64,000 nt of DNA from Octopus sinensis (lineage: Eukaryota), in contig NC_043013.1 in the NCBI RefSeq assembly GCF_006345805.1, positions 29,450,001-29,514,000 on the forward strand, read 5' to 3'. Of this stretch, positions 8,091 through 35,305 are shown in pieces (position 1 is the stretch's first letter; each line of letters starts with the position of its first letter). Under the pieces are notes generated by a model. That model was given only the letters and a program-made list of their open reading frames with translations, ran no database searches and was not told the origin of the DNA. A program made the position numbers and the translations under genes.

Positions 8091-8102
8091 AAAAATACAC
8101 AT

Positions 8103-8138
<36 letters not shown>

Positions 8139-8142
<4 letters not shown>

Positions 8143-8675
8143 TATTGGTGAATTGAAGAAATGGAGCTGAACGCAGATTGAACAGAAATCGTTTTATTTC
8201 ATTCTACACGTGTTTCGAAAGGCACAAATTACCAAAATCCGATTGAATAATGGGACCATATTGTGTCTTTCTCTTCAGGAAGAAAAAAGGAAATCCGTTG
8301 GAAAAACAAAAACAGAACAGAGGCGGAGCAAAAAACAAATCGAACTGTGCTCCTAAGAGCCCATGGCGAAACTCCTTTTTTCTTCCTGAAGAGAAAGACA
8401 CAATATGGTCCCATTATTCAATCGGATTTTGGTAATTTGTGCCTTTCGAAACACGTGTAGAATGAAATAAAACGATTTCTGTTCAATCTGCGTTCAGCTC
8501 CATTTCTTCAATTCACCAATAATGTTTTAATTTCAATTATCCGCACCAACGCACGGTTGCAACGCCAGATGGTTGTACCTCCAACCGTGCTGTTTACTGC
8601 TGTGATTTTTGCTACTAAGGTATCGGTTAAACTGTTGATTAATCTACTACAAGATTATTCATCTTTCTATTTCAC

Positions 8676-8680
<5 letters not shown>
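8139..8680. mobile_element. (TA)n-inserted element with 153-bp inverted repeat, each arm carrying an HHR
   Basis: 8139-8291 reads as the reverse complement of 8373-8525 with an 81-bp spacer; (TA)n on both sides. Confidence 0.85.
8381..8466 (+). ncRNA. Minimal type I hammerhead ribozyme motif (mirror copy on minus strand ~8198-8283)
   Basis: TTC-CTGAAGA(8386-8392)-GAAAG...CTTTC-GAAAC-ACGT-GTA-GAA; stem II GAAAG/CTTTC, palindromic ACGT loop III, GUA cleavage triplet, short stem I. Confidence 0.7.
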
Positions 8681-8718
<38 letters not shown>

Positions 8719-8872
8719 GATAGGCTCCTTTCAGTTTCCGTCCACCAAATCCACTCACAAGGCTTTGTCGGCCTGAGGCTATAATAGAAGACACTTGACC
8801 AAAGTGCCACGCAGCGGTGCTGAACCCGGACCATGTGGTTGATATATATATACATATACACACGCACACACA

Positions 8873-8947
<75 letters not shown>

Positions 8948-8992
8948 ATCTATATCTATATATATATATATATATATGTGTATATATATATA

Positions 8993-9257
8993 TTGGTAAA
9001 ACGGTAAGATAACAAAAGAAAGAAAGCGACCTCAATATTATGTAAATAGGGGAAATTTATCTATACAATAATATGTTACATTACTCGATAGTCAAGATAA
9101 AACTCTGAGTTTCAGATGCCGAAGTGGAAATCCACAAACCATCTCTTCGGTTATCTGGCTATTAACACCGAAGAGATGGTGTTGTGGATTTCCACTTCGG
9201 CATCTGAAACTCAGAGTTTTATCTTGACTATCGAGTAATGTAACATATTATTGTATA
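8993..9257. mobile_element. (TA)n-inserted element with ~90-bp inverted repeat and variant HHR
   Basis: 9062-9151 vs 9167-9257 inverted; minus strand 9095-9156 reads AGATAA-CCGAAGA-GATG...CATC-T-GAAAC-TCAGA-GTT-TTATCT. Confidence 0.7.
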
Positions 9258-9576
9258 TATATATATATATATATGTTGTGTGTGTGTGTGTGTGTGTGTG
9301 TATTACTTGCTACTTATGATTAGCTTGTAGTAAACAACTCGCCTACTGATGGTGGTGTATTTTGTTGATCAGCCTTTATCGATAATATTGATCTGAGCGA
9401 GACTTCAGTTCTTGCATTCTATGTGTTGACTAAGCGAAACTTCATGTCCCAGTTATATGAAAATCGATTAAGAGTATTCATCGTTTTTTTTTTTTCAATC
9501 CGTAGAGATATAAGTAAAATTTACGTATTTGTACGTTTACGGCGTATATTTGCAGAAGTTTTATCATACCTTAAGT

Positions 9577-10270
9577 GCAAGCGCGTGGCTTAGTGGTTAG
9601 AGCAGTCGACTCACGACTTCGATCCTTGAGCAAGACACTTTATTTCTCGTTGCTGCAATCCACCTCAGCCGGCAAAAACGGGTAGTACCTGCATTTCAAA
9701 GGGACACCCTTGTCACATTTTGCTTCGCTGAATCTCACCGAGAACTTCATTAAAGGTACGAGTATCTATGCTATTTGATGAATGAGGGATGTCGCTTTGT
9801 GACATTTCTACCAGTGTCCAGTTTATCCTGTTGACCACAAGCCACTGAGAGGAACCTTTACGCTGCTGTTATCTACCTGATAGAAACATCAACCAAACCG
9901 CCCTCAAACCATTCAGTATAATTTTAATTTACATATAGTCATGTATAATTATATAATCTCACAGTAAAGGCGCATAGTTTAGTGGTTAGCATATTGGGCT
10001 CACAGTCGTAAGGTCCTGGGTTCGATTCCGAGCAGCGCGCTGTATCCTTGAGCAAGGCACTTTATTTCACATTGTTCCAGTTCACTCAGCTGACAAAAGT
10101 TGTATACTTTTATTTCAAAAGGCCAGCCTTGTTACATTGTGTCGCCCTGAATCTCCCTGAGAACTACATTAAAGGTACAAGTGTCTGCGGAATGCTCAAG
10201 CATTTGCACGTTAATTTTACGGGCAGGCTGTTCCCTTAATCGGATCAGCTCGTTGTCGTAACTGACTGAG
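9577..10270 (+). mobile_element. Two decayed tRNA-derived SINEs (~9577-9770 and ~9966-10270)
   Basis: A-box TGGCTTAGTGG/TAGTTTAGTGG, B-box GGTTCGATTCC, shared core CTTGAGCAAG(A/G)CACTTTATTTC. Confidence 0.7.
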
Positions 10271-10417
10271 GGCCAGTCATCATACCTTGGTTCTACTCTG
10301 ACAGTGTTAAACACTAATGTCACGCATTAGTTTTCCGTAGTTACCAGATTTGTTACTATTAGGATACAAGCAGAATGGATACCCGTTTCTCTGTTATTGG
10401 TCAAGTGACGTCGATAC

Positions 10418-11440
10418 TTGCCTGAAATCCATAACAAATACACCTTCGAGTTGCAATATGCTGATGATACGGTACTTGTCAATTACAGCTCCGCTGGCCT
10501 TCAAAGGCTCTTGGACCACATGTTAGATGCATACAGCCATACTGGCCTAGTCATCAATACCAAGAAGACGGAATTCTTCCAACAGTCTCGTGCGTCCGAC
10601 ACCAACCCATGCTCCTTCCATATTGAAGATGTGACAATTGCTAATATTAACCAATTCACGTACCTTGGCTCAGTCTTCAACAACACCCTCGATCTGACAG
10701 ACGATATTCAGCGCCGTATTCGTCTTGCCTCTGCTGTGTTTGGTCGGCTAAGTACTCGCATCCTTCTAAACAAAAACATCAACATCAGAACAAAAGTGGC
10801 TGCCTACAATGCTGTTTGTGACTTAGTCCTGCTATATGGCAGCGAGTCTTGCATGACTTACCTGCGTCATATCAAGATGCTCGAACGGTTTCATATCTCT
10901 CGCCTTCAATAACTTCTTGGCTTACACTGGTGGAACAGGATCCCTTATGTTGAGATACGTGGCCGAATATACAGCCAGTCATTGGAGGTAACAATCGCTA
11001 ACCGCCAACTGAGATGGGCATGTCATTCGAATGTCTTCAAATCGATTGCCCCGCCTTGTTATGTACGGCGAACTTGAAGATGGAAGATGCTCTGTCGGTG
11101 GCCAGCACAAACGCTTTAAAGATCACCGGAAGGCAACGCTGAAAAAGTGTCATATTTCTCCCGACAGTCTCGAATCAATGGCTGCAGAGTGCACTAGCTG
11201 GCACGACGCATACAAGACTGGCATCACCAAACTCCAAGAAGATCTACTGCAGAGTGAAGCGGCACGTCGCGCCCGGCAGAACGAGCAGAAACCTGGACGT
11301 CAACAGCTGCAAGGGTTTATATGGTCCACCTGCAGACGTATCCTTCTCTCCAGAATCGGACTTCACAGTCATCAGAGGTCACATAACTAGAAATGACGTT
11401 TGGAAAAAGTACTCATCGCTTCACGATGTTCACGAAATGA
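10418..11440 (+). mobile_element. 5'-truncated RTE-clade LINE (RT C-terminus + C-terminal zinc finger), degraded
   Basis: LQYADD, GLVINTKKTE, FTYLGS, RLPRLVMYGEL, TCRR...SRIGLHSHQRSH; stop at 10912; followed by (TACA)n. Confidence 0.85.
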
Positions 11441-12086
11441 TGATTCATATATATACGTACATACATACATACATACATACATACATACATACATACATAC
11501 ATACACATACATACATACATACATACATACATACATACATACATACATACATACATACATAGGCAACGCCAATCGTAAATAATTTTATTTTATTTACAAA
11601 AGATTGCAGAAACTATGCATAGTCCAGAAAGGAGAGGGCAAACGTTTTTATTTCTCTTTCCATTTCAGAATTACAACTATTAGTGGTTTGGAGTTTAACT
11701 GCTCTTTCTAGTGAGACAGATGTCCTATTATAGCCATCTCTTATATGTTTGTTTGTATATATATATATTTGTGTGTGTGTGTGTAATTCGTCTCTGCACA
11801 TCATTTCTTGAGCTGGAAGTACTTTCTTATTATAACGTGCAGCTGTCTAAAATGTCAATGTTGAACTGAAGCATATTCGATGGTCTCAAAGCAAGGGAAG
11901 CGAGAGTGTTAAACATTTGCCACATTCGTATTCGATCCTTCAAATATTGTTTCAGAACAGCATCACTTGAGGCATGCACTATGAATTCCTAATATGCATA
12001 TTAAAATTATTGTATTACTATTTGCTACAAAACAATTGTGTTTATCCATCCATGTATGTATGTATGTATGTATGTATGTATGTATG

Positions 12087-12117
<31 letters not shown>

Positions 12118-12148
12118 GTATGTATGTAAGTATGTATCAGTCTGTCTG

Positions 12149-12203
<55 letters not shown>

Positions 12204-12416
12204 CCCCTATTCTCTCTCTCACACACACAGACACACAAATGCACACAAACATTTTAGAGAAGTAAGCATATTTGATGAATCTAAACTTATTTGGCATCTC
12301 TGAAAATATTCAATACGTATTATATGTATGTATATATATAAATATATATATATATACACACACCACATATATATATATATATATTATATATATATATATT
12401 TATATATATAAGTATA

Positions 12417-12448
<32 letters not shown>

Positions 12449-12562
12449 CATATATGTATATATATTTTTATATATGTATATGTATTTATATGTATGTATA
12501 TATGTATATATATTATATATATAATATATATATATATATAATATATATATATATAAATATAT

Positions 12563-15290
12563 TAGTTGCGGATTCTAGCTCGCTCTGATACTGAGTTGAG
12601 TTGATGCCTTCTAGTATCTCAAAATTCAATATATAATCATTTATGATTATAGTATTCTACGCTGAAGAGAAAAGAAGTTTTGGTAAGGTAGAATTATTTA
12701 ATATTAATTCTTATGCTTTCCTAAAAACTTGATTTCGAAACGTGCGTCCGTAGATAACTTAAAATTGTATGATAGATTGCCGTCAATTCATTCTCTCTTA
12801 CCTGTTTGTGTCTGCCTTCCAATTGCTGTTTTTACTGAGATCTCCCTTTTTAGTAGAAGAAATAGCTATAACTCTTTGACTGCTATTTCTAAATTCGGTA
12901 TGTGGTAAGGCAATTCGTTGCTAGACCCTTTATTGCTTAGTATTACTTAAATTTTCCTCGAATGAGGCTTTTACATGCCGAAGACTACTTGTTGTAATTG
13001 ATAATTATTCCAATTAATTAATTTCACCCTTCATTATTACGGATAACCATATTTTATCTCAGTAGATGACCACAGCATCTTGTTTTGGCTACACGCGGGT
13101 GGGAGGGGCTGGTGACACAATCTTTTCATTCACACTTTCAATTTGGGGATACTAGTTGCGGATTCTAGCTCGCTCTGATACTGAGTTGAGTTGGTGCCTT
13201 CTAGTATCTCAAAATTCAATATATAATCATTTATGATTATAGTATTCTACGCTGAAGAGAAAAGAAGTTTTGGTAAGTAGAATATTTAATATTTAATTCT
13301 TTGCTTTCCTAAAAACTTGATTTCGAAACGGGCGTCCGTAGATAACTTAAAATGTATGATAGATTGCCGTCAATTCATTCTCTCTTACCTGTTTGTGTCT
13401 GCCTTCCAATTGCTGTTTTTACTGAGATCTCCTTTTTAGTAGAAGAAATAGCTATAACTCTTTGACTGCTATTTCTAAATTCGGTATGTGGTAAGGCAAT
13501 TCGTTGCTAGACCCTTTATTGCTTAGTATTACTTAAATTTTCCTCGAATGAGGCTTTTACATGCCGAAGACTACTTGGTGTAATTGATAATTATTCCAAA
13601 TTAATTAATTTCACCCTTCATTATTACGGATAACCATATTTTATCTCAGTAGATGACCACAGCATCTTGTTTTGGCTACACGCGGGTGGGAAGGGGCTGG
13701 TGACACAATCTTTTCATTCACACTTTCAATTTGGGGATACTAGTTGCGGATTCTAGCTCGCTCTGATACTGAGTTGAGTTGGTGCCTTCTAGTATCTCAA
13801 AATTCAATATATAATCATTATGATTATAGTATTCTACGCTGAAGAGAAAAGAAGTTTTGGTAAGTAGAATATTTAATATTTAATTCTTATGCTTTCCTAA
13901 AAACTTGATTTCGAAACGGGCGTCCGTAGATAACTTAAAATTGTATGATAGATTGCCGTCAATTCATTCTCTTACCTGTTTGTGTCTGCCTTCCAATTGC
14001 TGTTTTTACTGAGATCTCCTTTTTAGTAGAAGAAATAGCTATAACTCTTTGACTGCTATTTCTAAATTCGGTATGTGGTAAGGCAATTCGTTGTTAAACC
14101 CTTTATTGCTTAGTATTACTTAAATTTTCCTCGAATGAGGCTTTTACATGCCGAAGACTACTGGTGTAATTGATAATTATTCCAAATTAATTAATTTCAC
14201 CCTTCATTATTACGGATAACCATATTTTATCTCAGTAGATGACCACAGCATCTTGTTTTGGCTACACGCGGGTGGAAGGGGCTGGTGACACAATCTTTTC
14301 ATTCACACTTTCAATTTGGGGATACTAGTTGCGGATTCTAGCTCGCTCTGATACTGAGTTGAGTTGGTGCCTTCTAGTATCTCAAAATTCAATATATAAT
14401 CATTTATGATTATAGTATTCTACGCTGAAGAGAAAAGAAGTTTTGGTAAGGTAGAATTATTTAATATTTAATTCTTATGTTTCCTAAAAACTTGATTTCG
14501 AAACGTGCGTCCGTAGATAACTTAAAATTGTATGATAGATTGCCGTCAATTCATTCTCTCTTACCTGTTTGTGTCTGCCTTCCAATTGCTGTTTTTACTG
14601 AGATCTCCTTTTTAGTAGAAGAAATAGCTATAACTTTGACTGCTATTTCTAAATTCGGTATGTGGTAAGCAATTCGTTGCTAGACCCTTTATTGCTTAGT
14701 ATACTTAAATTTTCCTCGAATGAGGCTTTTACATGCCGAAGACTACTTGGTGTAATTGATAATTATTCCAATTAATTAATTTCACCCTTCATTATTACGG
14801 ATAACCATATTTTATCTCAGTAGATGACCACAGCATCTGTTTTGGCTACACGCGGGTGGGAAGGGGCTGGTGACACAATCTTTTCATTCACACTTTCAAT
14901 TTGGGGATACTAGTTGCGGATTCTAGCTCGCTCTGATACTGAGTTGAGTTGGTGCCTTCTAGTATCTCAAAATTCAATATATAATCATTTATGATTATAG
15001 TATTCTACGCTGAAGAGAAAAGAAGTTTTGGTAAGGTAGAATTATTTAATATTTAATTCTTATGCTTTCCTAAAAACTTGATTTCGAAACGGGCGTCCGT
15101 AGATAACTTAAAATTGTATGATAGATTGCCGTCAATTCATTCTCTCTTACCTGTTTGTGTCTGCCTTCCAATTGCTGTTTTTACTGAGATCTCCCTTTTT
15201 AGTAGAAGAAATAGCTATAACTCTTTGACTGCTATTTCTAAATTCGGTATGTGGTAAGGCAATTCGTTGCTAAACCCTTTATTGCTTAGT
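12563..15290 (+). repeat. Head-to-tail array of a ~588-bp non-coding unit (4.6 copies), one HHR per unit; retrozyme-like
   Basis: Unit starts (TAGTTGCGGATTCTAG) at 12563, 13153, 13741, 14326, 14911; near-identical copies; both ends run into (TA)n. Confidence 0.95.
12656..12754 (+). ncRNA. Minimal type I hammerhead ribozyme (first of five in the array)
   Basis: Stem I TCTACG/CGTAGA, core CTGAAGA (12662-12668), long stem II GAAA.GAAGTTTT...AAAACTT..TTTC, GAAAC-GTGC-GTC (cleavage after 12748). Confidence 0.85.
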
Positions 15291-15300
15291 ATATATATAT

Positions 15301-15356
<56 letters not shown>

Positions 15357-16070
15357 TTAATTAGTCCGGCAGCATGACCGAAGATTGTCTTTTGTATTCA
15401 TTTCTAGCTTTTCTTAGCAATAACCTTTTATATCCATCTAGGTGTGAATTTAGCTACAGCGAAACAATGTCAGACCACAGAACAATGATTTCGTCCGTGT
15501 TTTCGCACGGGAGATGCCAACTGTCTCTATTGGGATGAAGTTGCGGTAAAAGTACAATTTCATAACAATTAGGTATCAGTATTATTTTCTGATTACTTAT
15601 CTTAAAGTACTCAACCAGGCCGTGATAAATAAAGTCATTAAGGAAAGACATTTTGTACTTATTCTGGTACATAATCACTCTCTTCCTCTCTTTTCCTTTG
15701 TCTCTTCATAGTCACGCGCGTACGCACACACACACACACACACATACACACACACACATACACACTTGTGTATACATGTATGTGTGAATGAGTTGTAGAC
15801 ATATCAACTTCTGTGTATCTATTGCTCATTCTTTCAATCTTTCACATCATAAATATACATTTATATAGACACATACACACGAATACATATGTCTGTGTGG
15901 GTTTGCGTGTATGTGTGCGTGTGTGTGTGTAGGTATATATATATATATATATATATGCATATATATATATATGTATGTATATATATATATGTTAGTGTCT
16001 GTGTGTGTATATATATATATACACACACACACATATATATATACATGCACACACACACGCACACACACAC

Positions 16071-16124
<54 letters not shown>

Positions 16125-16728
16125 GTATGTATGTTTTTATGTATGTATGTATGTATATATGTATGTATGTATGTATGTATGTGTGTATGTGAGTGTGCTG
16201 AAAGGTTCCTGACTGTGGGCAAACACACTGTCTTTTACTACCCGCCATTGCTTCTTCACCAAACTTTTTGGCGCCCTCCGATTCTTCCCCTCTCTTCCTC
16301 CCATCCTCCTCCCCTCTTCCTCCCATCCTCCTTAATCCCTTCTTTCTCCTTTTCTCTTGGTCACTGATTCTGTCCCCTGCCTTCCACCCTCTTTGATTCC
16401 CTCTCTCTCTGTCTCTCTTTCTCTCTCTCCTGCGACCTGCTGCTTCTTAAACCATTCTGTTGGCCTTCGTATCTCGACCAACATGTGTCCCCGCTACCGA
16501 AACGGTAATTATTTCTACGCCAGCTATGTTGTTGTTGTTGTTTTTGTCTCATTTGGTCTAAAGTCGTATGACAACCACCGTTATATATATTTTGTTTATT
16601 CATTACTGTTTTCAATTTCGTTTTCGTCTCTTGTATTCACATCCGTCTTGTGCGTTCACATTCCTGTCTTCTACCAAGAAATCTAATGCTTACAGCTTAG
16701 TTTTTTTTCTTGGGGCTGGCCGAGTTGG

Positions 16729-16797
16729 AGCAAATATCAGAATTGAACAGCCGAAATTTGCTATGATGATTCGGTGTCTGACTGAAGATTGAAGGCT
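16729..16797 (+). ncRNA. Candidate non-circularly permuted (pseudoknotted) hammerhead ribozyme; repeated at ~19193-19261 and ~19922-19990
   Basis: AGCAAAT-A-TCAGA ... CAGCC-GAA-ATTTGCT ... TCTGA-CTGAAGA: stem III (7 bp) and stem I (5 bp) flank the core nucleotides in register, but the strand order is non-standard and the stem II partner is ambiguous. Confidence 0.5.
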
Positions 16798-17217
16798 TCG
16801 AATGATTTGTCTGTGTTCCGTGTTCGTCCCTTCCTGTATATCACGTTCATTATATATAAAAACATTCATTCTTATATTATTGCGGCGTTACGTGCACCCC
16901 CCCCCCCCGTTTGTTTGTCCAATTTTAAACCCTGCACGACTTCTATACACACTGTCTTTTACTACCCGCCATTGCTTCTTCACCAAACTTTTTGGCGCCC
17001 TCCGACTCTTCCCCTCTCTTCCTCCCATCCTCCTCCCCTCTTCCTCCCATCCTCCTTAATCCCTTCTTTCTCCTTTTCTCTTGGTCACTGATTCTGTCCC
17101 CTGCCTTCCACCCTCTTTGATTCCTCTCTCTCTGTCTCTCTTTCTCTCTCTCCTGCGACCTGCTGCTTCTTAAACCATTCTGTTGGCCTTCGTATCTCGA
17201 CCAACATGTGTCCCCGC

Positions 17218-18944
17218 GGATCAGTTGTCTGTTCGTCAGTTTGAGTTCGGTCGTGTTTTTTTACGCTCGTAAAATTCGGTAAAAAAGATCAAAAAGAATT
17301 GTTGTGTTGTTGTGGAAATTTTGAACGGCGTTTTAAAGCGGTTTCGCGTTCCACTGGTTCTGCGCGTTACACTTTTTCTGTTTTGACGGCCGTTTTGGCC
17401 TGTCAGGCGGGAGGAGATGGATGACCACTCCCTAGTGGAGGAGTCGGAGGAAGAATGGATATTTGAGAGCTTGTCGGAGACATCGAACTCTGAAGACGAG
17501 CAAATCGGTGATGTAAATAATGTGGAGAAAAATTACAGGAAAACGTACGCAGGAGTTGCAAAAAAGAAGACGGAACAGGAAAAAGAAATAAACCTAGAAA
17601 AATTGCCAGGTTTCCAGAGGTATATGAGGAAGGACAGCGGCGAGGTGGAACTGGAACCACCACCAAAGAGAAAGGAATGGTACAATAAGAGGACCATAAT
17701 TTACAGGGTGTTCGTGAACGAAAGAAAGAAAATAGAGATCGTAAACATGGAATGGATAGAGGAGGCCCTGAGAAGATCGGAGGAGGAAATCATTTTCCTG
17801 ACTCGAGGATCGAAGTACGGTACTGTAGTGGTGCATTTTAAAAGTGAGACTGCAGCGAGGAGGATGGCGGTGAAGGCGGTGAAGTCAGAGAAAGGGTAAC
17901 ACTTTTACCTATGTACTTGAATAGAAGGATCACACGAGTAAGGGTGGAGGGAGTGCCACCAAACGTGGAGGCTGAGTGGATTGTGGCGGCTGTGATCAGC
18001 GGCCACGAGGAGAAAGTAGATATTCTCCATGCCTCGGTCAAGACCGAGGGCTGAGAGAGGCGTAATAGTGGAGCTGAACGTGGCAGGCGGACAGCGAGGT
18101 ACTGGTGGACCTGGCGGAGAGCATTAAATTGGGAGACGTGATTATGAGAGTGTGGGTGGAGGGCAGAGCTCCACGTTGTTACAAGTGTGGCCTGAGGGGC
18201 CACATAAGAGCCTTCTGCCCTCCCCCACCAAGAGAAAAGGAAATCGTTGAGGAAATCTCCAAAAGAGGAGGCCCCAAAAGAAGAAGAAATTAAAGAGAAG
18301 CAGACGGAAAGGGAAATGACAGAGGAGGAGGAGATGCAAAAAGAGTGTGAGGAGGGCAGAAAGAAGAGAAAAGGAAAGAAAAGGAAAAATGTGCGGCGAA
18401 GCCCCAACCCACCCCATACCACCCCACACCCTTGGAGACCCATCCTGCCCCCGCAAAACAGCAATCCCACCCACTCCCCGCCTACAAAAAACGAAAACAG
18501 ACACACAGAACATACAAAAGCCCCAGTCCTACTTTTTATGTGTTGTGGGGAAGGGGGATACTGAGAACGCAAGAAGGCTTTTTGAAGACGATGTATGGCA
18601 GGAGTATGAGGACGGAAGCTATGCGGTATTCGATTTTGAACTCATGGGCTCTTTGATGAGCAAGTGCAATGAACTACGTATAAATTGTTTATCAGCATTT
18701 ATGAAGGATGATATGATAGAGAGATATGAGAGAAATGAAAGGTAGGTGAGGTGAAAAACTTTGGAATCGTGATAGGAAACGGAAAGGTAAGTGATGCTGG
18801 CGGAGGGGGCCGTTAGCATCGCTTTCATGTTATCATTTTTTCATTTTAACATTCATTTAATCATAATTTTAATCGCATTGTTTTATGTCCCCCATGTTTT
18901 GTAATGTTCCCTCTTCGTGGCCCCTAGTGGGTAATAAAGAAATA
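17218..18944 (+). mobile_element. ORF1-only non-LTR retroelement (Tx1/L1-like) with 19-bp TSD
   Basis: GACCAACATGTGTCCCCGC at 17199-17217 and 18945-18963; ends AATAAAGAAATA; single gag-like ORF and no RT. Confidence 0.85.
17417..18745 (+). pseudogene. Frameshifted ORF1/gag-like protein with CCHC zinc knuckle
   Basis: Consecutive ORF pieces: acidic N-terminus, RRM-like YGTVVVHFKSE and RVRVEGVPP, CYKCGLRGHIRAFC (CX2CX4HX4C), Glu/Lys-rich linker, C-terminal domain ending 18745. Confidence 0.75.
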
Positions 18945-20762
18945 GACCAACATGTGTCCCCGCTACCGAAACGGTAATTATTTCTACGCCAGCTATGTTG
19001 TTGTTGTTGTTTTTGTCTCATTTGGTCTAAGTCGCATGACAACCACCGTTATATATATTTTGTTTATCATTACTGTTTTCAATTTCGTTTTCGTCTCTTG
19101 TATTCACATCCGTCTTGTGCGTTCACATTCCTGTCTTCTACCAAGAAATCTAATGCTTACAGCTTAGTTTTTTTCTTGGCTGGCCGAGTTGGAGAAAATA
19201 TCAGAATTGAACAGCCGAAATTTGCTATGATGATTCGGTGTCTGACTGAAGATTGAAGGCTTCGAATGATTTGTCTGTGTTCCGTGTCTCGTCCCTTCCT
19301 GTATTTCACGTTCATTATATATAAAAACATTCATTCTTTATTATTGCGGCGTTACGTGCACCCCCCCCCCCCCCGTTTGTTTGTCCAATTTTAAACCCTG
19401 CACGACTTCTATACACACTGTCTTTTACTACCCGCCATTGCTTCTTCATCACCAAACTTTTTGGCCGGCGCCTCCGACTCTTCCCCTCTCTTCCTCCCAT
19501 CCTCCTCCCCTCTTCCTCCCATCCTCCTTAATCCCTTCTTTCTCCTTTTCTCTTGGTCACTGATTCTGTCCCCTGCCTTCCACCCTCTTGATTCCCTCTC
19601 TCTCTGTCTCTCTTTCTCTCTCTCCTGCGACCTGCTGCTTCTTAAACCATTCTGTTGGCCTTCGTATCTCGACCAACATGTGTCCCCGCTACCGAAACGG
19701 TAATTATTTCTACGCCAGCTATGTTGTTGTTGTTGTTTTTGTCTCATTTGGTCTAAAGTCGTATGACAACCACCGTTATATATTTTGTTTATTCATTACT
19801 GTTTTCAATTTCGTTTTCGTCTCTTGTATTCACATCCGTCTTGTGCGTTCACATTCCTGTCTTCTACCAAGAAATCTAATGCTTACAGCTTAGTTTTTTT
19901 TCTTGGGGCTGGCCGAGTTGGAGCAAATATCAGAATTGAACAGCCGAAATTTGCTATGATGATTCGGTGTCTGACTGAAGATTGAAGGCTTCGAATGATT
20001 TGTCTGTGTTCCGTGTTCGTCCCTTCCTGTATTTCACGTTCATTATATATAAAAACATTCATTCTTATATATATATATATCCCAATAAGGTTCGAAAATC
20101 GATTATGTTCATTTTTTCAGCCTGCGGAGAAATGGCTAGAATTTGCCATGTTTATAATTATACCATATGTTACATGTGTATATATATATGTGTGTGTGTG
20201 TGTGTGTATGTGTGTGTGTGTATGTGTGTGTGTATGTATGTATATATGTATATATATATATATGTGTCCATACATATACCATGCATTCGTATATACATGC
20301 ATATATACATACATCCCTTCTGGGGTGCAAAGGAATAAATATAAGATTGGAGCACTCAATATACTTGGTTTGAGTTACATGAAAATTTTAACGATCTGGC
20401 TCAGCTCAACGTTGCGTTAAGATTCGTAAGACCGTACCGCACATACACGAAACTTGAAGTAATGCAGCGTGAGTGAAAGAATTATAATCCTTCCCGCTCT
20501 CTGTCTCTGTATAACTATATAAGTAGTAACTATTGAAAATGTTTTTATTTTTCATCCCCTTCGAAATTACTCTTAACTGTGGTTTCGACTTTGACTGTTC
20601 GTTTTAGCATGTAAGGTATCCTGTTAGGGTTATCACTTTTGTGTATAAATATACACTTATTTTATATGAAAAATATGTTATCTATTGACTATTTTATGCA
20701 TGCTAGCCACTGGTAGAACATTTCTCTAATTTCTCTACCCTATATATATATATATATTATCG

Positions 20763-20796
<34 letters not shown>

Positions 20797-21134
20797 TCAG
20801 TAAAACTTTAGATTCAGTTGAATATGGTACTTAAGTTAAAGGAACCAGAATTTAGTATGGTGTTATCCATATAATTCAAAATTGGGTGATTATAATCAAA
20901 ACAAGCAACAAGGATATCCAGAGGTAATGCAGTACAATCGTTTCATGCGACTCCATTTAGCCAAAGACACCGATAGAATAAGTACTAGGGTCACGAACAA
21001 TAAGTCCTGGGGTAGATTTGTTCGACTAAAGGCAATGCTCCAGCAAGGTTCAGTCAAATGACTGAAACAAATAAAAAAAATGAGTAAAAGAATATATTAT
21101 TTATATATATATATATTATATTATATATATATAT

Positions 21135-21208
<74 letters not shown>

Positions 21209-21595
21209 ATATATATTTATTGAACGACTAGTTACAAATATCCTTTATTCTCGACATATGTTTCGAAGGCTGCATATTCCTAATTCTGAAGGAATAAGGA
21301 GTACATTATGCAGATTTCTCATCAGGAAAATCAAGCAACTTATGGCGACACCAAAATGCACAAAAAACTTTTAGTCAGCTATATACTTATAATTTTAAAA
21401 TAAATATACAAATTTCCGCACGAAGACACGTAGTCTATGCCCTAGGGACGTAGCTTCAACCGCGTTCTTTCTGATGTGAATTTGCTACCCAGGTATCGGT
21501 TATCTTTCGAATTATCCTTAATAAGATAATTCATTCAATTACTCAAATATATATATATATATAATCAAAATAAGCAACAATGATATCCAGAGGTA

Positions 21596-21685
21596 ATGCA
21601 GCATGATCGTTTCATGCGACTCCATCTAAATGAACAATGCAAGTATTACATCAATTTTAAAATGTAGAGCAATCTTCAGCTGCAT
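21596..21685 (-). ncRNA. Degenerate type I hammerhead motif
   Basis: ATGCAG-CTGAAGA-TTGC...GCAT-GAAAC-GATC-ATG-CTGCAT; partial sister copies read GATC-ATA (~21811,+) and GATT-GTA (~20930,-), implying a GATC-GTA consensus. Confidence 0.6.
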
Positions 21686-22086
21686 AAAAATATAGAATTT
21701 CGTTAAATTCGAAGGACTCATTTCTAATAAGAAAACTATACAAATGAATCCTTCGAATTTTAAAATTGATGTAATACTTGCATTATTCAATTAAATGGAG
21801 TCGCATGAAACGATCATACTGCATTACCTCTGGATATCATTGTTGCTTATTTTGATTATATATATATATATTTGAGTAATTGAATGAATTATCTTATTAA
21901 GGATAATTCGAAAGATAACCGATACCTGGGTAGCAAATTCACATCAGAAAGAACGCGGTTGAAGCTACGTCCCTAGGGCATAGACTACGTGTCTTCGTGC
22001 GGAAATTTGTATATTTATTTTAAAATTATAAGTATATAGCTGACTAAAAGTTTTTTGTGCATTTTGATGTCGACATAAGTTGCTTG

Positions 22087-22171
22087 ATTTTCCTGATGAG
22101 AAATCTGCATAATGTACTCCTTATTCCTTCAGAATTAGGAATATGCAGCCTTCGAAACATATGTCGAGAAT
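22087..22171 (+). ncRNA. Canonical minimal type I hammerhead ribozyme (mirror copy 21247-21331, minus)
   Basis: Stem I ATTTTC/GAGAAT, CTGATGA (22093-22099), stem II GAA..CTGCATA/TATGCAG..TTC, GAAAC-ATAT-GTC with palindromic loop III. Confidence 0.85.
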
Positions 22172-22198
22172 AAAGGATATTTGTTAACTAGTCGTTCA

Positions 22199-22277
<79 letters not shown>

Positions 22278-22558
22278 TAATATATATATTCTTTTACTCA
22301 TTTTTCTTTTATTTGTTTCAGTCATTTGACTGGAGCCTTGCTGGAGCATTGCCTTTAGTCGAACAAATCTACCCCAGGACTTATTGTTCGTGACTCTAGT
22401 ACTTATTCTATCGGTATATTTGGCTAAATCACTAAGTTACGGACATAAACACACCAAAATCGGTTGTCAAGCGACGGTGGGAAACAAACACAGACACGAA
22501 AATACATATATGCATACATATATATGTGGTGTGTGTATATAATATATTAATATATGTA

Positions 22559-23234
22559 TAGAAGAAATAGCTATAACTCTTTGACTGCTATTTCTAAATT
22601 CGGTATGTGGTGAGGCAATTCGTTGCTAAACCCTTTATTGCTTAGTATTACTTAAATTTTCCTCGAATGAGGCTTTTACATGCCGAAGACTACTTGGTGT
22701 AATTGATAATTATTCCAAATTAATTTAATTCACCCTTCATTATTACGGATAACCATATTTTATCTCAGTAGATGACCACAGCATCTTGTTTTGGCTACAC
22801 GCGCGTGGGAAGGGGCTGGTGACACAATCTTTCCATTCGCACATTGAATTCGGTGAACTAGTTGCGGATTCTAGCTCGCTCTGATACTGAGTTGAGTTGG
22901 TGCTATCTAGTATCTCAAAATTCAATATATAATCATTTATGATTATAGTATTCTACGCTGAAGAGAAAAGAAGTTTTTGGTAAGATAGAATTATTTAATA
23001 TTAATTCTTATGCTTTCCTAAAAACTTGATTTCGAAACGTACGTCGTAGATAACTTAAAATTGTATGATAGATTGCCGTCAATTCATTCTCTCTTACCTG
23101 TTGTGTCTGCCTTCAATTGCTGTTTTTACTGAGATCTCCCTTTTTAGTAGAAGAAATAGCTATAACTCTTGACTGCTATTTCTAAATTCGGTATGTGGTG
23201 AGGCAATTCGTTGCTAAACCCTTTATTGCTTTGT
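22559..23234 (+). mobile_element. Dispersed, circularly permuted ~1.15-unit copy of the 588-bp HHR repeat
   Basis: Same sequence as the 12563-15290 unit but starting at TAGAAGAAATAGC; ~85-bp terminal redundancy; HHR loop III reads GTAC; TA-rich flanks. Confidence 0.9.
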
Positions 23235-23333
23235 ATATATAGATATATATATATATATAAACAATGAATTAAATAGTGAGATTCAATTAACAATCTAGTA
23301 CTTTAGTTATATTATAACATAATATACTATATA

Positions 23334-23467
23334 TACATTATTTACATTATTTACATTTGATAGATATTTGTCCTCATCTTGTTTGTTCCCGTGGGCATAT
23401 GGCTTAGTGGTTCAGAGCGCGGGCTACTAACCCCAAGATTCCAAATTTAATTCCGAGCAGTGACCTG

Positions 23468-23498
<31 letters not shown>

Positions 23499-23516
23499 AC
23501 AACAACAACAACAACA

Positions 23517-23547
<31 letters not shown>

Positions 23548-23763
23548 AGGAGAAGGAGAAGGAGAAGGAGAATGATAACAAGGAAAAATAGCTGAGGGAT
23601 CAGAACCCAGGTTCGAAATTTCCTCAAGACATCTAATGATGGCTGGAGGGTATATCAGCCAAAATGTTGTGTTAACAATAAAGAGGATGAGGACAAATAT
23701 CCGGCAAATGTAAATAATGTAAGTAATATACATACTTCCTCATCTCTTAAATATAGAACTGTA
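23334..23763 (+). mobile_element. tRNA-headed SINE with decayed HHR-like 3' module and inverted partial copy of its 3' end upstream
   Basis: A-box TGGCTTAGTGG at ~23400; triplet-repeat spacer; ACAT-CTAATGAT-GGCTG...CAGCC-AAAAT-GTT-GTGT at ~23629-23672; 23334-23387 is inverted relative to ~23674-23727. Confidence 0.6.
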
Positions 23764-24264
23764 TTGAAATATACTATATATATAATATAAGATACCATAG
23801 AAATATTATTAAAAAACCAAAATAGACAACAATTGGCTTCGACTTGTATACATTATTTGATTTATAAACAATTCATATCCACTTATATAAGTCTCTTCAG
23901 AGCTTTGGTTTAAAAAGCCGATGAAATTCCGTGTGAAAGGACGGTTGGATTCCCAAAAATTAATTCAAATTTATTGTTTGTAATATTCATTATACTATTT
24001 AAGTGGTATTCAACTGACGTACTAGTGAATTGGATGTTTTACACACTCCTTTGAAGGAATTCCTTTCCTTAGTTTGTTACTTATATATATATATATATAT
24101 ATAATATATATATACACGTCCGTCTTCTTTCAGTTTCCGCCTACCAAATCCACCCACCAAGCGTTGGTCGCACCGAGGCTATAGTAGAACTTGCCCATGG
24201 AGCCACGCAGTGGGACTTAACACGGATCCATGTGGTTGGGAAGCAAGCTTCCTACCCCACAGCC

Positions 24265-24309
<45 letters not shown>

Positions 24310-24399
24310 TGTGTGCGTGCGTGTACATACCTATTTATGTGTGTTGTTTTATGTAAGTATATATATATATATATATATACAGAGAGAGAGAGAGAGAGA

Positions 24400-24577
24400 G
24401 ACATATATATAGGGAGAGAAGACAGGCGGTGTAGACAACAAACAGATGTATTAGTTTAACAGTCGGGAAGTGAAAAAGCCTTTCACGTTTCGAGTCTACG
24501 CTCTTCCACAGAAACGAACACAGAAAGAAACAAGGAGAGAAAATACTGTATGTGTAGTGGCTAGCGATCAATCATGC

Positions 24578-24580
<3 letters not shown>
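24400..24580 (-). mobile_element. Short (TA)n-associated element with HHR-like variant
   Basis: Minus strand CTGTGGAAGAGC(GTAG)ACTC-GAAAC-GTG at 24481-24514; related to 60030-60175(+) and 1915-2140(+). Confidence 0.45.
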
Positions 24581-24616
<36 letters not shown>

Positions 24617-24629
24617 TAAATAGATAGAA

Positions 24630-24714
<85 letters not shown>

Positions 24715-25226
24715 GAAATTGCGTAAAATTGTAATGAAATAGTCAAGTAAAATAAGTGCTTGAGTTTTGAACTGTACCCTTATTTATATGATATCATTTA
24801 CTCTAACAACGCAAGAATTATGTTTGAATTTGAAATTCCATCCTCAAAAGTGAAACCACATGTTTTGCTGCTCATTCTAATGTGTATAAATATATACATA
24901 CATATATACACATGCATACATACATACGTACATACATACATATTTATATATATATATATATATATGATATATATATATATATATATATAATGATATATAT
25001 AATATATAATAATATTATATATATATATATGTATATATATATATAGACATATATTTTATATAAATACTTCATAATGTGTCTGCTTGTACACCAGGCTAAC
25101 ATTACTGTCAAGATTAGTAAAGAAATGCATTAAAGAAAAAGTATGTAATGATCGTCATTTATACCTTGCCTTGTATACATACATACATAAATACATACAT
25201 ACATGCATACACACATACACACACAA

Positions 25227-25260
<34 letters not shown>

Positions 25261-25271
25261 GTATATATATT

Positions 25272-26810
25272 TACTGAACCACAAAAGCCGATGTTGCACA
25301 CATGCATATTAAATAGAAACTGTTTTTTTTTTTTAATGAACAGACTGCCATAGTATTGACTAAAGAGTTCTAATTAAGAAACCGTTCTTTCCTAATAATA
25401 AAACGTCATTTCCTGAAACATGTTCGATGTCACGTGGTGTCACGTGATGATGGAGTGTCCTGGTTCCAAAGAGATGAATTCAATATCTCCTGTGACCAAT
25501 GTTAGCGTTGATTACCGCCAGGCATCTTACGTACATTGAATGCACCAAACGATTGATAAATGTCACGGAGATAGCAACCTACACTCTGTTAAAACTTGCA
25601 GTGTGTTGTGCCGCTGTTGTCAGCCTTGGACGGATGTTCTTTAGCATTCTTTGGATTTGTCCCACAGCGGCTCTATAAGGTTCAAGTCCGGACATAGGGT
25701 AGGATATGGCAGTTTCTGGATGCTGTGCTGTTGGAGGCAGTCTCTTGTCAACTTGGCAGTATGGGCACAAGCGTTTTTGTGTTGGACCACGTGACTCCTA
25801 TGACGGGCAAAATATTGCGTAATGTGAAGCCTCAACACCTGGTCGATGTAGCGAGCAGCGTTTACTCTATTGCCCTAGCCATGGCCGATGTTTTGGAAGA
25901 CCACGGGTCCAAGTTTCTGGTTGAGTGCAATCGACCCCATACCATAATGCTCTGTCCTCCCCATGAGTCTCTCTCCATCACACACCCATCGGCATGACTT
26001 TCACCTCTTCTTCTCCAAACCATAGCTCTGCCATCTGCCACAGAAATGCAATATCAACTTTCATCAGAGAATACTACAGTCCTCCGCTGCTGATATCGCT
26101 AGTTCTGACGTTTTTGGGCCAACAGCAGACGTGACCGTCGATGACGATCTGTGCGGATATAGCCCTCTAGCTGGACGTCGACAACACAGATTGAAAGATC
26201 TCAGCCGGCGACGAACTGTCTCTGCATAGATAGGTCTGTCGGGACTCCTTATGGTCTGCCTAGCTAATTCCGTTGCCCTCTGGAATCGGTCCTGGAAGTG
26301 CTGTCGGTGTAGGTTGCGATCTTGACGAGCCGTTGTAACCATCGGTCGGCTACTGCGTGGAGGATCACCCGTGCTGTTTGTTGCTTTGTATCGCTCCCTC
26401 AACTGCTCAGTTATCCGAATACAGCTGTTCAAGTCATTAGTAATGACCCATAGACATTGACCGGCATGGAGACGTCCAATGGTTTGCTCCCTCTAATTTC
26501 TTCTCAGTCTTGCGAAACGAACGACAGGCTGGTAAATTTGGGTGTCTTTTATGCCCGATGTGTCAACGTTTCGACCCTGCATCATGCTTTTCATAAAGAT
26601 GCGTTTGCGAGAATTACCATGTTCACGAACAGTGAACGAGTTCGAACCCTAGATGCAATCCTTGTGTTTTCAAAAGACAATGGTATTGTGGCTCAGTGAT
26701 CTCTATCTGATGTCAAACTACCCAGAAATATAATAAAATCCTTATGATCTCAATATCATGTGTGAAACAAATAATCTTTTAGAATGCAACGCTTCTTTTG
26801 TGGTTCAGTA
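25272..26810 (-). mobile_element. Tc1/mariner DNA transposon, decayed transposase
   Basis: Terminal inverted repeats TACTGAACCACAAAAG / CTTTTGTGGTTCAGTA in TA context; PRSSRPMVTTARQDR, TVRRRL, PDLNLIEPLWD motifs. Confidence 0.85.
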
Positions 26811-26829
26811 TATATATGTATATATATAT

Positions 26830-27685
26830 TGGTCACTCCTAATGATTTTCGCGTATGAGTATTTGAAGAGCGGATTTTTAAAAAGAAAACCGTTTTTGAA
26901 AATACAAGAACAATAGAAGCTACATCTACCTGCGTTGGATGTGTAAGAGTCCAGGTATGGCTTTTGCTATGAAGGCGCAATGGGGACACTGGTGATTTTG
27001 ATTATGCCTAAGATTTTGACATTTGATATCTTATCTTGCCATTTTATGTTACAGATATTGCACAGGCGGCACAGGCGGCACAAGTTTCAATTTTCTTTTA
27101 TGTGTCTGTAGTAGGGAGTTCATGTTTTTGCCCCATACAAAAGGGTATTTAAGACACGGATTCGTATACACTTATTTTAGTTTTCAGATTGACACCGTGT
27201 TCATCCCATAAACGTCAGGAAAGTTTTTCAAAAGCATTCGTAGCCTTAGAATATTCTAACACTGATTTCATCATCAAGAGTATTCTTACAGTTTATTGTG
27301 TTTCCAAGATATTTAAATAACCTGACCCATTTGAGTGGTTTGCTGTCTATCATCATGTTTGAATTTTGGTTGGAATAAAACTTCAGTCTTTTGACACTGA
27401 TAGTAAGTCCAAATGTACGAGCTTCCCCACCAAGCCTGTCGACCGTTTCCTATGATAAGCACCACATATATAGTTATAATAATGATAAACTATGGATAGA
27501 ACTTATAAATATTTTAATGTATCTCTACGTGCGCTTCGACAGATCACATAATTTTTGTGACCATAATGCGTATTCCTGGGACGATGACAATACAGTCTGT
27601 AATATCCATGGACATCAGGTAAATCTTTGTTCATGCGTTCATTTCTTTAGGCAATATGGTCACAAATAACATGTTATATTTGGAA
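26830..27685 (-). mobile_element. Decayed RTE-clade LINE fragment
   Basis: Minus-strand reading by eye: ARTFGLTISVKKTEV, FKYLGNT, LDDEISVRI.KATNAF. Confidence 0.65.
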
Positions 27686-27904
27686 ACGCGCATAGTGATA
27701 CATTAAAATATTTATAAATTCCATCCATGGGTTATTATTATTATTATTATTATTATGTTTACTCTACGTTATATCGACACAACATGATGGGATCCCATAA
27801 AACTGCTGATGTAGGTTGGAATCACTAGGCCGTAGGCGACATAGTAAAATAGCAGCTTCATATGCGTACTCAAAAGCGTTTCCTGCAAACTAACTTAAGG
27901 ATGG

Positions 27905-27906
<2 letters not shown>
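27686..27906. repeat. Unclassified ~220-bp dispersed repeat abutting (TA)n; second copy 49655-49874
   Basis: Near-identical copies 22 kb apart with the same start (ACG(C/T)GCATAGTGATAC) and the same end (AAGGATGG then (TA)n). Confidence 0.9.
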
Positions 27907-27976
<70 letters not shown>

Positions 27977-27979
<3 letters not shown>

Positions 27980-30900
27980 ATATTTCGGAATGGTCATATT
28001 GCCAGTTTAGCCAATAAAACACACGCACTATATATTTGGTGTTATTTTGCTTCAGTGATATTTATTTTTTACATTAATCTTAATCTTATTTCGGCCAAAG
28101 TTCTTTCGTCACACTCCTGTGACCGCATCAGTGGTCCTTTGTTTTCTTCTCACTTACTTGTGGCTCTCCTTACTAACCGTCAGCTATTTTGTATTTCTAT
28201 TGTATGTCTTCATTTGTGCATGCTTATATCTCTATGTGCGTCTATGTTTATTTAGTGTGTGTGTGGGGGGGATGCCTGTAATATTTGTATCTTCTGTTAT
28301 ATACATTCTTGTAATTTGTGTTTTTTTTTTGTTGTTGTTGCTTTTGTTCTAATTTTGTTCATGTGTTTACATCCACCCATTATATCATTACATATGCTTG
28401 TATGTATGTATACAAACAATTTAGTAATAATAATAATAAATCTAATCGAAAAAAAAAAAAAAGAATATACATATACATATATATATACATACATATACAT
28501 ATACATATATATATATATACATATATACACACATATATACACATATACATGTACATATATATACACATATACATATATATAGATATTCATTTCTATTTCT
28601 TTAATTACCTGTGTATTTATTATGTTTGCAGGATCCACTATTGTCATATGTTGTGGTGTGCGCTATTGCTCCATTCTAGTTTTCTATTCAGGCTAGGTTT
28701 ATTTTCTATTATATGTGTAGCTTCTGTAATTTGTCTAATTGTTGCATCTGTTCTATGTGTGGACAATATCTTAATCTCTATGTTATTGATTGATCCCCCG
28801 TGTTCTTGTTCAGCGTGTTGGTACAGAATCGATGAGCTTTTACCTTCCTTGAGTTGTCTCCAATGTTCATTCACCCGCTCACCAATGCTTCTTGCAGTTT
28901 CCCCTACGTATGTTACTGTCTTGTTACTGCATCGTCCCTCTATACATCTTATACTATAGACCACATTTCTGGCTTTACAGTTCGTTTGTGGGAAATCTAC
29001 ATACAGTGCAATAGTTATCCGTACAGAGTTCTACTAAAAGGATAGCTTCTACCAATTATAGATCTGATAGGGTTGCCTGGCTTTTCAACAACCTTAATTC
29101 TTAGTTTAAGTTTATCTAGGGTCCTTCTAAAGCGGTACGCTAGTTCACCTCCAGGGGTGGTGTCAACGAACATGACACTCTGGTATTTATGGCTATCATA
29201 CCAAGAGTTGGCCTTCCCTATTTTCTTTTTTGTCCTTTCTATAGTGTTCCATGACTTGTTCCTATAGAGTGGGCAAATCCCATTCCTATCATTACATAAT
29301 ATATTATCAAATTTCTTCATGGCTCCTTTGTATACTCTGATCCTTTCTTTATGGCTGTAACCTGAGAACTGCATGCGGTGAATGAAATACTGTATGTGTC
29401 TCTTTAATTCTGTAGGCTCGCACATGCGTGACACATTTCTCATTATTCTGACGAGGTCTGCCATCAAAATATTGAATTTGGCATTGCCCGCAATGGCTGA
29501 GTTCCGGTGGATCAGGTATTTTGAGGCCATAGGTTTTGCATAGTATGAATGAAGGATTTGGGTTTTATTTTTCACAATTTCTAGCCAGAGTTCAGTGTCT
29601 AGTACTGGTAGTCTATGGTTGGGGGTTTAAGTGGGGTAGTCTATTGTGACCTTAATACTCTGGTGGATGGAGTTAGCTATTTGCTGGATGCTCTCCATAG
29701 TATTAGTTTCTATTACTATATCAACAGTACTCTCTTGTGGGGGTGCCTTTACTACTATATTGATATCATCAACATAGCGAGAGTACATGTTTACGAGTAT
29801 GGATTTCTGCAGTAGGCATTCTTTAAGCCTTCTGTCCCACCATACCATGAAGAGGTTGGCCACATCACCAGCGATACTAACACCGATGGCTGCCCCCTCG
29901 TCCTGGGCATATATTTTATTATTAAATTTAAATGTGTGGCCTTTTAGGGTAACTCTTATACTAGCTCCTAGTGCATGTGCGATCATTTTCTTTACCTGAT
30001 GGACATTTGCGGGGCTCCGTATGGCTCTGGTCCATCCGCGCCATCTTTCTATATGTGTCTTCCTAGCCATAGAAGTAATTGTAGGCGGTCTACCTCTTAA
30101 ACATCTACTGGGGCAGAAACTACTAAGATTATGTTTATCTAAGTATTCACTATTATATGTCAGTCTAAGTAGGAGGCCCAGTTCTTCTGTGTCGACATTA
30201 CAGAACTCCACCTGGCTCTCGTTGATCATCTCCACGCACTTCTCCACTGCAAAATCTACGTCAATCGATGGGTATAGGGATACCACATCCATGCTACCTA
30301 CTATACATCCTGTCAAGTCACAAGTTTTGTTACAGTCACTGATCCTGCTTAGGAGATCTTCTGTGCTGTCACACACATCAGGTGACATCCTGATTATAGG
30401 GCATATGATCATTGAGAGGAAGTAGGAGATTCTGTAATTGCTAGCGATATTCGCTCCACAGACTGGTCTTGTTGGTGGTCCTGCTATAGGGTCAGTAAAA
30501 CCTTTATGGTCCTTGCGAAGTCCATACAGTGCCGGGATATCATTGTTCCAGGCTTAGAAATTCTTTGCAGTACGTTTCTGAGGTCCCAGAACAATTGTCC
30601 ACATCATCATGTGGGCATTGAGGACCTTTTCTCTCTCCTCATGCGCCTGTACAGTTGTTACTTTTGTATTGGCGATATGAGGTTGCATTGCCTGGATGTA
30701 GTTCGGTAAGCTGTCTATTGACATCCTGCCGGACTTATCCGTGGGAAGGCATATCACCTCTCCGTTCCTCGTGCGCTGAATGAGCTTCTGTAGGCCACAT
30801 GCAGGTTTAATCCCTGTTGTTGGGCATCTGTCTTATTCTGTCTCTGTCTCTTAATGTATAATCCTAAAATCTGTCTAAGTTTGGTCCTAGCTATAGTGAA

Positions 30901-32215: not shown

Positions 32216-32446
32216 AAAATGTTCAGAACGGCATTGTTTTCGTCAGAAAAGTAGATATAATTTTTTATCAAAGTGGTTATATATTCTATAATTTTCACAG
32301 ACAATCAATACAATATTAATTGTTATTGTCTGCGATTTTGGTGTAATTTGAGAGGATAATACAAAAGTTATGGATGATTTAGTGATTTACTGCAAAACCC
32401 ATGGCGGCCAACATGATCAGAACGGTTGAAAAAATAACAAAATAAT

Positions 32447-35254: not shown

Positions 35255-35305
<51 letters not shown>

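Follow-up and report, generated by a model that had tools for sequence, protein, structure and literature searches.

Hammerhead-bearing repeats ending in (TA)n beside a Penelope-like element of Octopus sinensis, with a candidate type-SGC hammerhead in a 724-nt tandem

Animal retrozymes without long terminal repeats (LTRs; non-LTR retrozymes) are non-coding, GC-poor tandems of strongly self-pairing units that each carry a type I hammerhead, and their mobilization by a Penelope-type helper has already been proposed (PMC7229834; bioRxiv 10.64898/2026.07.22.740005). The pseudo-LTRs of Penelope elements carry minimal hammerhead ribozymes (min-HHRs) (PMC4209133), and Craig et al. (PMC8557442) reported inverted truncated copies, one-sided tails, missing target-site duplications and a (TA)n bias in Penelope-like elements, linking a CX2-5CxxC linker to microsatellite targeting. 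Type-SGC hammerheads were described from metatranscriptomes, with none found in genomes of known organisms (Eckert et al. 2023, PMC10085705), although figures and supplements of that work may hold eukaryotic or insertion-bearing examples. Among cephalopods, the giant squid genome paper gives 235 Rfam hammerheads but no context for them; no cephalopod non-LTR retrozyme was found in the literature searched, and no octopus retrozyme or animal SGC hammerhead in the open literature searched. Here we analyze a 64,000-nt stretch of Octopus sinensis (NC_043013.1, positions 29,450,001 to 29,514,000; the window), in which several families of hammerhead-bearing repeats end in (TA)n near a frameshifted Penelope-like element. 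With a probability of roughly three in four, these elements were inserted by the reverse transcriptase (RT) and GIY-YIG endonuclease of several Penelope-like families, some as passengers and some as truncated ends. The hammerhead-like repeats are mostly further examples of the published type; the unusual part is a candidate type-SGC motif in one family, E.

The window is AT-rich and microsatellite-dense. A strict type I hammerhead descriptor applied to both strands gave nine matches, compared with a mean of 0.02 and a maximum of 1 in 100 block-wise (500-nt) dinucleotide shuffles. The nine cores, at 8278(-), 8386(+), 12662, 13252, 13839, 14425 and 15010 (all +), 21325(-) and 22093(+), represent three families, A, B and C (letters A–K are labels of this analysis). 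A relaxed descriptor permitting Penelope-type variants gave 12 matches (shuffle mean 0.65, 40 shuffles), gaining 9150(-), 22958(+) and 28131(-). Two decayed motifs without a descriptor match, 21679(-) and 23633(+), were read by eye, as were hammerhead-like motifs at 2004(+), 24511(-) and 60064(+) that an earlier sequence-only reading of the window had not listed. That reading, partly confirmed as a whole, had claimed motifs at nine places. Those at 8381, 22087 and the five from 12656 onward are canonical, and those at 9095, 21596, 23629 and 28093 (cores at 9150(-), 21679(-), 23633(+) and 28131(-)) are variant or decayed. The sixth motif it had listed, in a dispersed copy, is present, with its core at 22958(+), but lacks one base at the junction of cleavage site and stem I; the three motifs from 16729 have no type I reading under either descriptor, although a type-SGC reading fits. 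The excess over dinucleotide-shuffled sequence, which it had proposed as a check, is borne out by these counts. No hammerhead was among the Rfam matches listed for the window (150 of 230) or in three local scans, the Rfam models probably being defeated by the long stem II.

The association of the motifs with (TA)n, a second proposed check, also holds. All seven CUGAnGA-core insertions, counted by nearest core (K, A, the C array, the E array, G, B and the dispersed C copy), have (TA)6 within 330 nt downstream, compared with 2/26 of the other CUGAnGA heptamers in the window (Fisher p 8e-6); none of the six control heptamers in the 7.8–29-kb interval lies near TA. The predicted cut is 35–218 nt from the next (TA)6 at 13 of the 14 tabulated sites and 413 nt away at 23629, so the spacing of about 100–250 nt given previously was roughly right. 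A target-site duplication inside (TA)n is neither visible nor excludable. These insertions interrupt a common short interspersed element (SINE) that has a TA tract within it (7847-8139 with 8682-8844; 22253-22560), so SINEs supply target sites.

Family C compares most directly with animal retrozymes. Each of its five array units has a canonical type I hammerhead with a long stem II and an intact core. The element is non-coding (35% GC, longest ATG frame 37 amino acids, no LTR), its monomer is strongly self-paired (folding z -5.0, equaled in 0/100 shuffles) and the 3' end of the array lies in (TA)n, 192 nt past the last cut site. By these sequence criteria, family C is a non-LTR retrozyme in the published sense. 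Its 588-nt unit is above the 170–400 nt of invertebrate circles and within the 51–972 bp of Li et al.; unlike published retrozymes, it has a 55–75-nt insertion in stem II and a fixed 3' end in (TA)n. The array and the dispersed copy share an identical 3' end base and have different 5' starts, and the unit's own continuation at that base begins with TA. Because the insert spans cut sites, we infer that a circle or an uncut multimer served as template. Half or more of the family C words were present in 20 of the 24 public runs listed, which span 11 studies and carry five coded organism labels; no RNA run was among the runs listed with these words, a result uninformative on expression.

The two arms of family A, which are 152/153 identical, each hold a core (8278(-) and 8386(+)), and the element is flanked by (TA)n on both sides within the TA tract of a SINE. 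The right and left copies of family B agree at 330/333 positions. Alignment of A with B gave z 9 over the hammerhead and z 18 over the 150-nt tail, so the earlier statement that the families share little sequence was wrong for this pair, as it was for the group at 2004, 24511 and 60064. The stem III loop is palindromic in both A and B, and three stem II pairs are kept through double changes. Coordinates of these and the other features are collected in Table 1. The two B copies lie within a 1.5-kb imperfect palindrome (20955-22429), each side of which consists of a SINE half, B and a G arm. Its arms differ at 2/333 positions in B, 5/106 in G and 4/136 in the SINE, which suggests that a composite read-through was duplicated in inverted orientation or that the arms were converted later.

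Table 1. Coordinates of features in the window (nt positions of the 64,000-nt stretch)
Feature	Position	Strand	Description
Family A	8140..8677		inverted arm 8140-8291(-), sense arm 8373-8525, 150-nt 3' tail 8526-8677
Family D	8993..9253		head-to-head inverted; variant core 9150(-), truncated arm core 9168(+) without stem I
Family C array	12559..15292	+	4.7 tandem units of about 588 nt
Family E	16223..20066	+	about 2.9 tandem units of 724 nt, split by LINE-like insert, 3' end in (TA)n
Candidate type-SGC hammerhead, family E	16729..16803	+	repeats at about 19193-19267 and 19922-19996
LINE-like (long interspersed element-like) insert	17218..18944	+	zinc-knuckle ORF1-like frames (ORF, open reading frame), 19-nt target duplication, inside family E unit 2
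Family B left copy	21216..21547	-	canonical core 21325(-), tail homologous to family A, inverted
Family G	21564..21856		head-to-head inverted, decayed type I core 21679(-); 3' piece also at 20891-20959
Family B right copy	21871..22203	+	canonical core 22093(+), (TA)n 37 nt past cut site
Family C dispersed copy	22559..23237	+	1.15 units, 90-nt terminal direct repeat (pseudo-LTR)
Family F	23340..23730	+	inverted copy of own 3' end, tRNA-like SINE head, (AAT)n tract, minimal hammerhead 23633
Family J	24400..24580	-	minimal hammerhead-like motif, core 24511(-), U6, G17, TA on both sides
Frameshifted Penelope-like element	27977..32304	-	RT 29627-30553, GIY-YIG with CCHH 28644-29030, 3' end in (TA)n

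The insertions have a characteristic anatomy: partial tandems with a terminal direct repeat, inverted copies at the 5' side and fixed 3' ends with TA microhomology. As had been noticed from the letters, duplications are either tandem (the C and E arrays) or inverted (A, B, D and G). In A, B and D, one arm breaks off at a microhomology inside the element (T, TATA-like or AATAAATATA) and is joined there to (TA)n, with a longer tail on the other side; the short arm of D stops at TATA. Such arms would be expected from second-strand priming inside the RNA. Twin priming is known from L1 work. The window elements resemble those of PMC8557442 in their (TA)n bias, lack of a visible target-site duplication, inverted truncated copies, one-sided tails and CX2-5CxxC linker, and non-autonomous multi-copy derivatives occur both here and in Chlamys (PMC8557442); they differ in that the window's Penelope-like element is broken and its clade is placed by motifs rather than by a tree. 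Likewise, the motifs of A, B, D, F, G, J, K and 28131 resemble the min-HHR of Penelope pseudo-LTRs (PMC4209133) in their short or palindromic stem III and unpaired base after position 9, and the window hammerheads share with it many solo and opposite-strand paired occurrences and high variability. Departures from min-HHR are the long stem II of A, B, C and G, the U at position 6 of both J copies and the C at position 9 of 28131. Taken together, the anatomy and the literature make Penelope-type mobilization into (TA)n well supported.

A cycle consistent with this anatomy can be proposed. A passenger RNA would be transcribed from a tandem or from an RNA polymerase III head and cut by its hammerhead, which would act as a dimer wherever stem III is short and palindromic; the monomers may circularize. 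A Penelope-type enzyme would then nick (TA)n and prime at a fixed TA-like site about 35–220 nt downstream of the cut site. Copying round a circle or along an uncut multimer would yield 1.15 to 4.7 units, and second-strand priming at an internal TATA-like site would produce the inverted arms of A, B and D. The sequence-only reading had seen a diverse community of ribozyme-bearing RNA parasites. Only the 588-nt, 724-nt and tRNA-headed elements, however, have the look of non-coding passengers in their own right; the short inverted elements may equally well be 5'-truncated 3' ends of other Penelope-like families.

The neighboring Penelope-like element encodes an RT followed by a C-terminal GIY-YIG domain with CCHH residues. 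Pfam scored RVT_1 at E 2.8e-4 and GIY-YIG at E 2.7e-4, neither reaching the curated cut-off, and portions of the RT match predicted proteins of Octopus vulgaris at up to 99%. The coding sequence is spread over several frames rather than one intact ORF, the linker near 29000 reads C-X4-C-X2-C in a shifted frame, which fits CX2-5CxxC, and no second copy of the 3' end (pseudo-LTR) was found in the window. The element's hammerhead at 28131(-) is an A9C variant located 121 nt before its (TA)n. From its motifs, and not from a tree, the element is assigned to the Neptune type. Two Tc1/mariner copies (32216-35262 and 50317-51919) are also present, one of them with a LINE fragment inside and abutting the Penelope-like 5' end.

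Could this neighbor be the one (TA)n-targeting helper of all families, each an independent non-coding parasite, as had been suggested? We consider this improbable. All families do end in (TA)n, as does the Neptune-type neighbor. Yet the neighbor is frameshifted, and its comparison with the repeats, of which a form had been proposed as a further check, gave no significant same-strand similarity to the hammerhead families tested (the best score, z 3.3, was to element H, which has no hammerhead), so a single shared helper does not follow and the proposal is left unsupported. The short inverted elements, moreover, resemble usual truncated insertions (PMC8557442; PMC4209133). O. vulgaris has 190 Penelope-like families amounting to 6.83% of the genome, 31 of them recently active (PMC13282606), which makes several helpers likelier than one.

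Relatives of the neighbor were sought in metagenome contigs, yielding 80 loci, of which L001-L052 were scanned for hammerheads, the weakest (L053-L080) were left out and 13 had their 3' ends read. A descriptor match lies about 1.1 kb past the RT match in 5/52 (L003, L005, L006, L023 and L028). Among the relatives fetched, L001 is the closest, with 52% RT identity; its end lies in (TA)n, and a U3-A8 core with C9 was read in it by eye (2490-2540). In L028, a canonical core precedes (TA)n by about 60 nt. Only these 2/52 loci have a dinucleotide run of six or more, with TA at the 3' end, and several others (L003, L006 and L023) carry on beyond their hammerhead without it, so TA targeting is no fixed trait of this Penelope-like clade. 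Core variants were also read by eye at L002:4975-5015 (U15.1-A16.1) and L011:2760-2800 (U3-A8). Descriptor matches at L002:3208 and L003:3084 fall inside ORFs and were treated as chance. The window elements matched the related loci over nothing beyond 27–34-nt low-complexity stretches, and no Penelope RT alignment was obtained in viral contigs.

Family E has no type I hammerhead in its units under the strict or relaxed descriptor and so falls outside the retrozyme definition. Its motif has the block order site-GAAA-CUGAAGA with an intact core (UH, GAAA, CUGAnGA). Stem III (16729-35/16756-62, 7 pairs), stem I (16737-42/16776-81, 5–6 pairs) and stem II (16749-52/16794-97, 4 pairs) are crossing, the GAAA and CUGAAGA blocks occupy 16753-56 and 16782-88, a closing helix of 6 pairs joins 16769-74 to 16798-803 and the predicted cut is after 16736. 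As in type-SGC hammerheads (PMC10085705), stems I–III are pseudoknotted, a helix joins the outer sides of stems I and II, and the 6 nt between stem III and that helix are within the published 0–44; unlike them, the motif has a linker of 6 nt (typically 3) and 5 additional nt before stem II (known maximum 1–2). With a descriptor composed after the site was seen, 3351 window shuffles gave 105 motifs of any block order with at least 16 pairs, 26 of SGC order and 3 of SGC order with the extra helix. Neither descriptors nor inspection by eye upheld a type I or a U15.1-A16.1 type I reading of 16729, and both readings were rejected.

Family E was followed in public runs by mapping their contigs onto 16445-16946, where depth is no copy number. 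In four runs, 1301, 999, 490 and 2 contigs aligned. Summed depth falls across the 3' end (after 16877) from 452,295 to 49,350 in run X1, from 559,361 to 181,178 in X2 and from 66,661 to 5,100 in X15, and 22 X1 contigs among the loose ends listed run on as (AT)n at 16877; the drop and this continuation indicate that the TA-joined end is general for family E. Loose ends at 16804-16817 come from other subfamilies that match the motif to 16804 and then have a different 3' sequence, a divergence implying that more than one element carries the motif. The variants listed leave all 11 core positions untouched (chance about 0.07). Just before the cut, A is found changed to C, which is allowed, and the commonest X1 variant creates a sixth stem I pair. 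Single stem variants keep or create a pair in 4/9 cases, compared with 19% by chance. In a diverged contig (X10 record 10, depth 2.5), stem III is short of one base on each side, and two stem I pairs show compensating changes on both sides. The motif pattern matched no stretch in the genome-contig collection; five viral-contig matches lacked the rest of the motif and were judged chance.

Other features of family E count against a working ribozyme. The first, core-adjacent pair of stem I is lost in the diverged contig, pairing is disrupted by variants at 16762, 16771 and 16781, and the five additional nt at 16789-93, between CUGAAGA and stem II, have no indel among the variants listed. Stem III is interrupted in unit 2, a nested fold backed by three variants at 16723-26 competes for part of it, stem I is not obviously preserved at a 7-contig loose end at 16758 and the family folds no more strongly than shuffles. 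Weighing both sides, we regard an active type-SGC ribozyme as possible but tentative. The same caution, at odds below even, applies to the fuller proposal that family E is an abundant 724-nt element with a working SGC hammerhead, the first in an animal genome or retroelement, whose core would tolerate a 4–5-nt insertion and which would be the self-processing signal of a Penelope-dependent RNA parasite that Rfam and type I descriptors overlook; a class of retrozymes with permuted ribozymes would then have stayed hidden. Family E probably follows a cycle like that of family C, with an SGC-order hammerhead or the relic of one. For its LINE-like insert, Pfam was blank over 17387-17899; the insert may be target-specific and is perhaps Tx1-like.

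That the C and E arrays are instead ordinary satellites, grown by unequal crossing-over from a single truncated insertion and carrying inactive relic hammerheads, seems to us distinctly improbable. The array units do show mosaic sharing of variants, several motifs in the window are decayed and local amplification is discussed by Li et al. (bioRxiv 10.64898/2026.07.22.740005). Against this stand the dispersed C copy with the same 3' end and a pseudo-LTR, the intact cores in 5/5 C units and the hundreds of family E contigs per run with their common TA-joined end.

The remaining families are more decayed or variant. The family D core at 9150(-), the site reported at 9095, has U4C, one additional U before GAAA and a 6-bp stem I. 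In the family G core at 21679(-), as read by eye, position 17 is a G and 10.1-11.1 and 15.2-16.2 are mismatched; the other two partial copies of the family both have A17, and in one the stem III pair is restored. Related minimal hammerhead-like elements beside TA runs at 1955-2137(+), 24400-24580(-) and 60020-60175(+) form the J/K group, in which core position 6 is U in both J copies and the K core is canonical. Element H (27470-27905, with a second copy at 49655-49875) has the Penelope-like shape: both copies stop in (TA)n at an identical 3' end, and an inverted copy lies on the 5' side; no hammerhead was found in it by descriptors, by eye or by a local Rfam scan, and it may hold another structured RNA. 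In family F, G5 and G12 of the hammerhead are both A by eye, so its core is decayed. The A box of its head is intact, and the head aligns to two of the three other SINE heads of the window above all 200 shuffles; the B box is absent even at three mismatches, and ARAGORN and Rfam were blank. Schistosoma SM-alpha/Sj-alpha repeats (PMC6765202) have the same order of a promoter-like head and then a hammerhead, whereas family F is a single decayed copy whose 3' end recurs inverted at the 5' side. Family F is likely a tRNA-headed Penelope passenger.

Its tRNA-like head would also suit SINE-like passengers of LINEs that target simple repeats; candidates would be Dong-R4 and RTE, which have both been active recently in O. 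vulgaris (PMC13282606). Insertions of Penelope type, however, are marked by partial tandems, by one-sided tails and by a 3' end copied in inverted orientation at the 5' side, and no LINE-like 3' tail was seen. Dong elements target microsatellites. We judge a LINE origin of these repeats very improbable. Chance matches in AT-rich, microsatellite-rich DNA can practically be dismissed: even though a TA run follows within 250 nt for 30% of positions at 7.8–29 kb and three sites are by-eye readings only, the descriptor counts and the control heptamers refute chance for A, B, C, D and the 28131 motif, leaving it only for E, F, G and J.

Insertion by several Penelope-like families has its own difficulties. 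Family F lacks a long terminal TA run, the neighbor shares no significant sequence with the hammerhead families, and among its relatives L003, L006 and L023 extend past their hammerhead without (TA)n, dinucleotide runs are rare and many loci end short of the 3' end. The A/B covariation comes from two sequences only and is matched by 65/500 shuffles. All hammerheads here are predictions from sequence, and in Xenopus only 1/9 predicted retrozymes cleaved in vitro (bioRxiv 10.64898/2026.07.22.740005).

Retrozymes and hammerhead-bearing Penelope ends in microsatellites were known already; the window adds a cephalopod case with a clean anatomy. With 3' ends that are identical at TA microhomologies and insertions running across several cut sites, it allows direct tests of the circular-template and twin-priming models of Penelope-type insertion. 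Should cleavage by the family E motif be shown, hammerheads with a non-circular permutation would not be limited to environmental RNA replicons and would occur at high copy in an animal genome, and searches for types I–III would have overlooked a whole group of elements.

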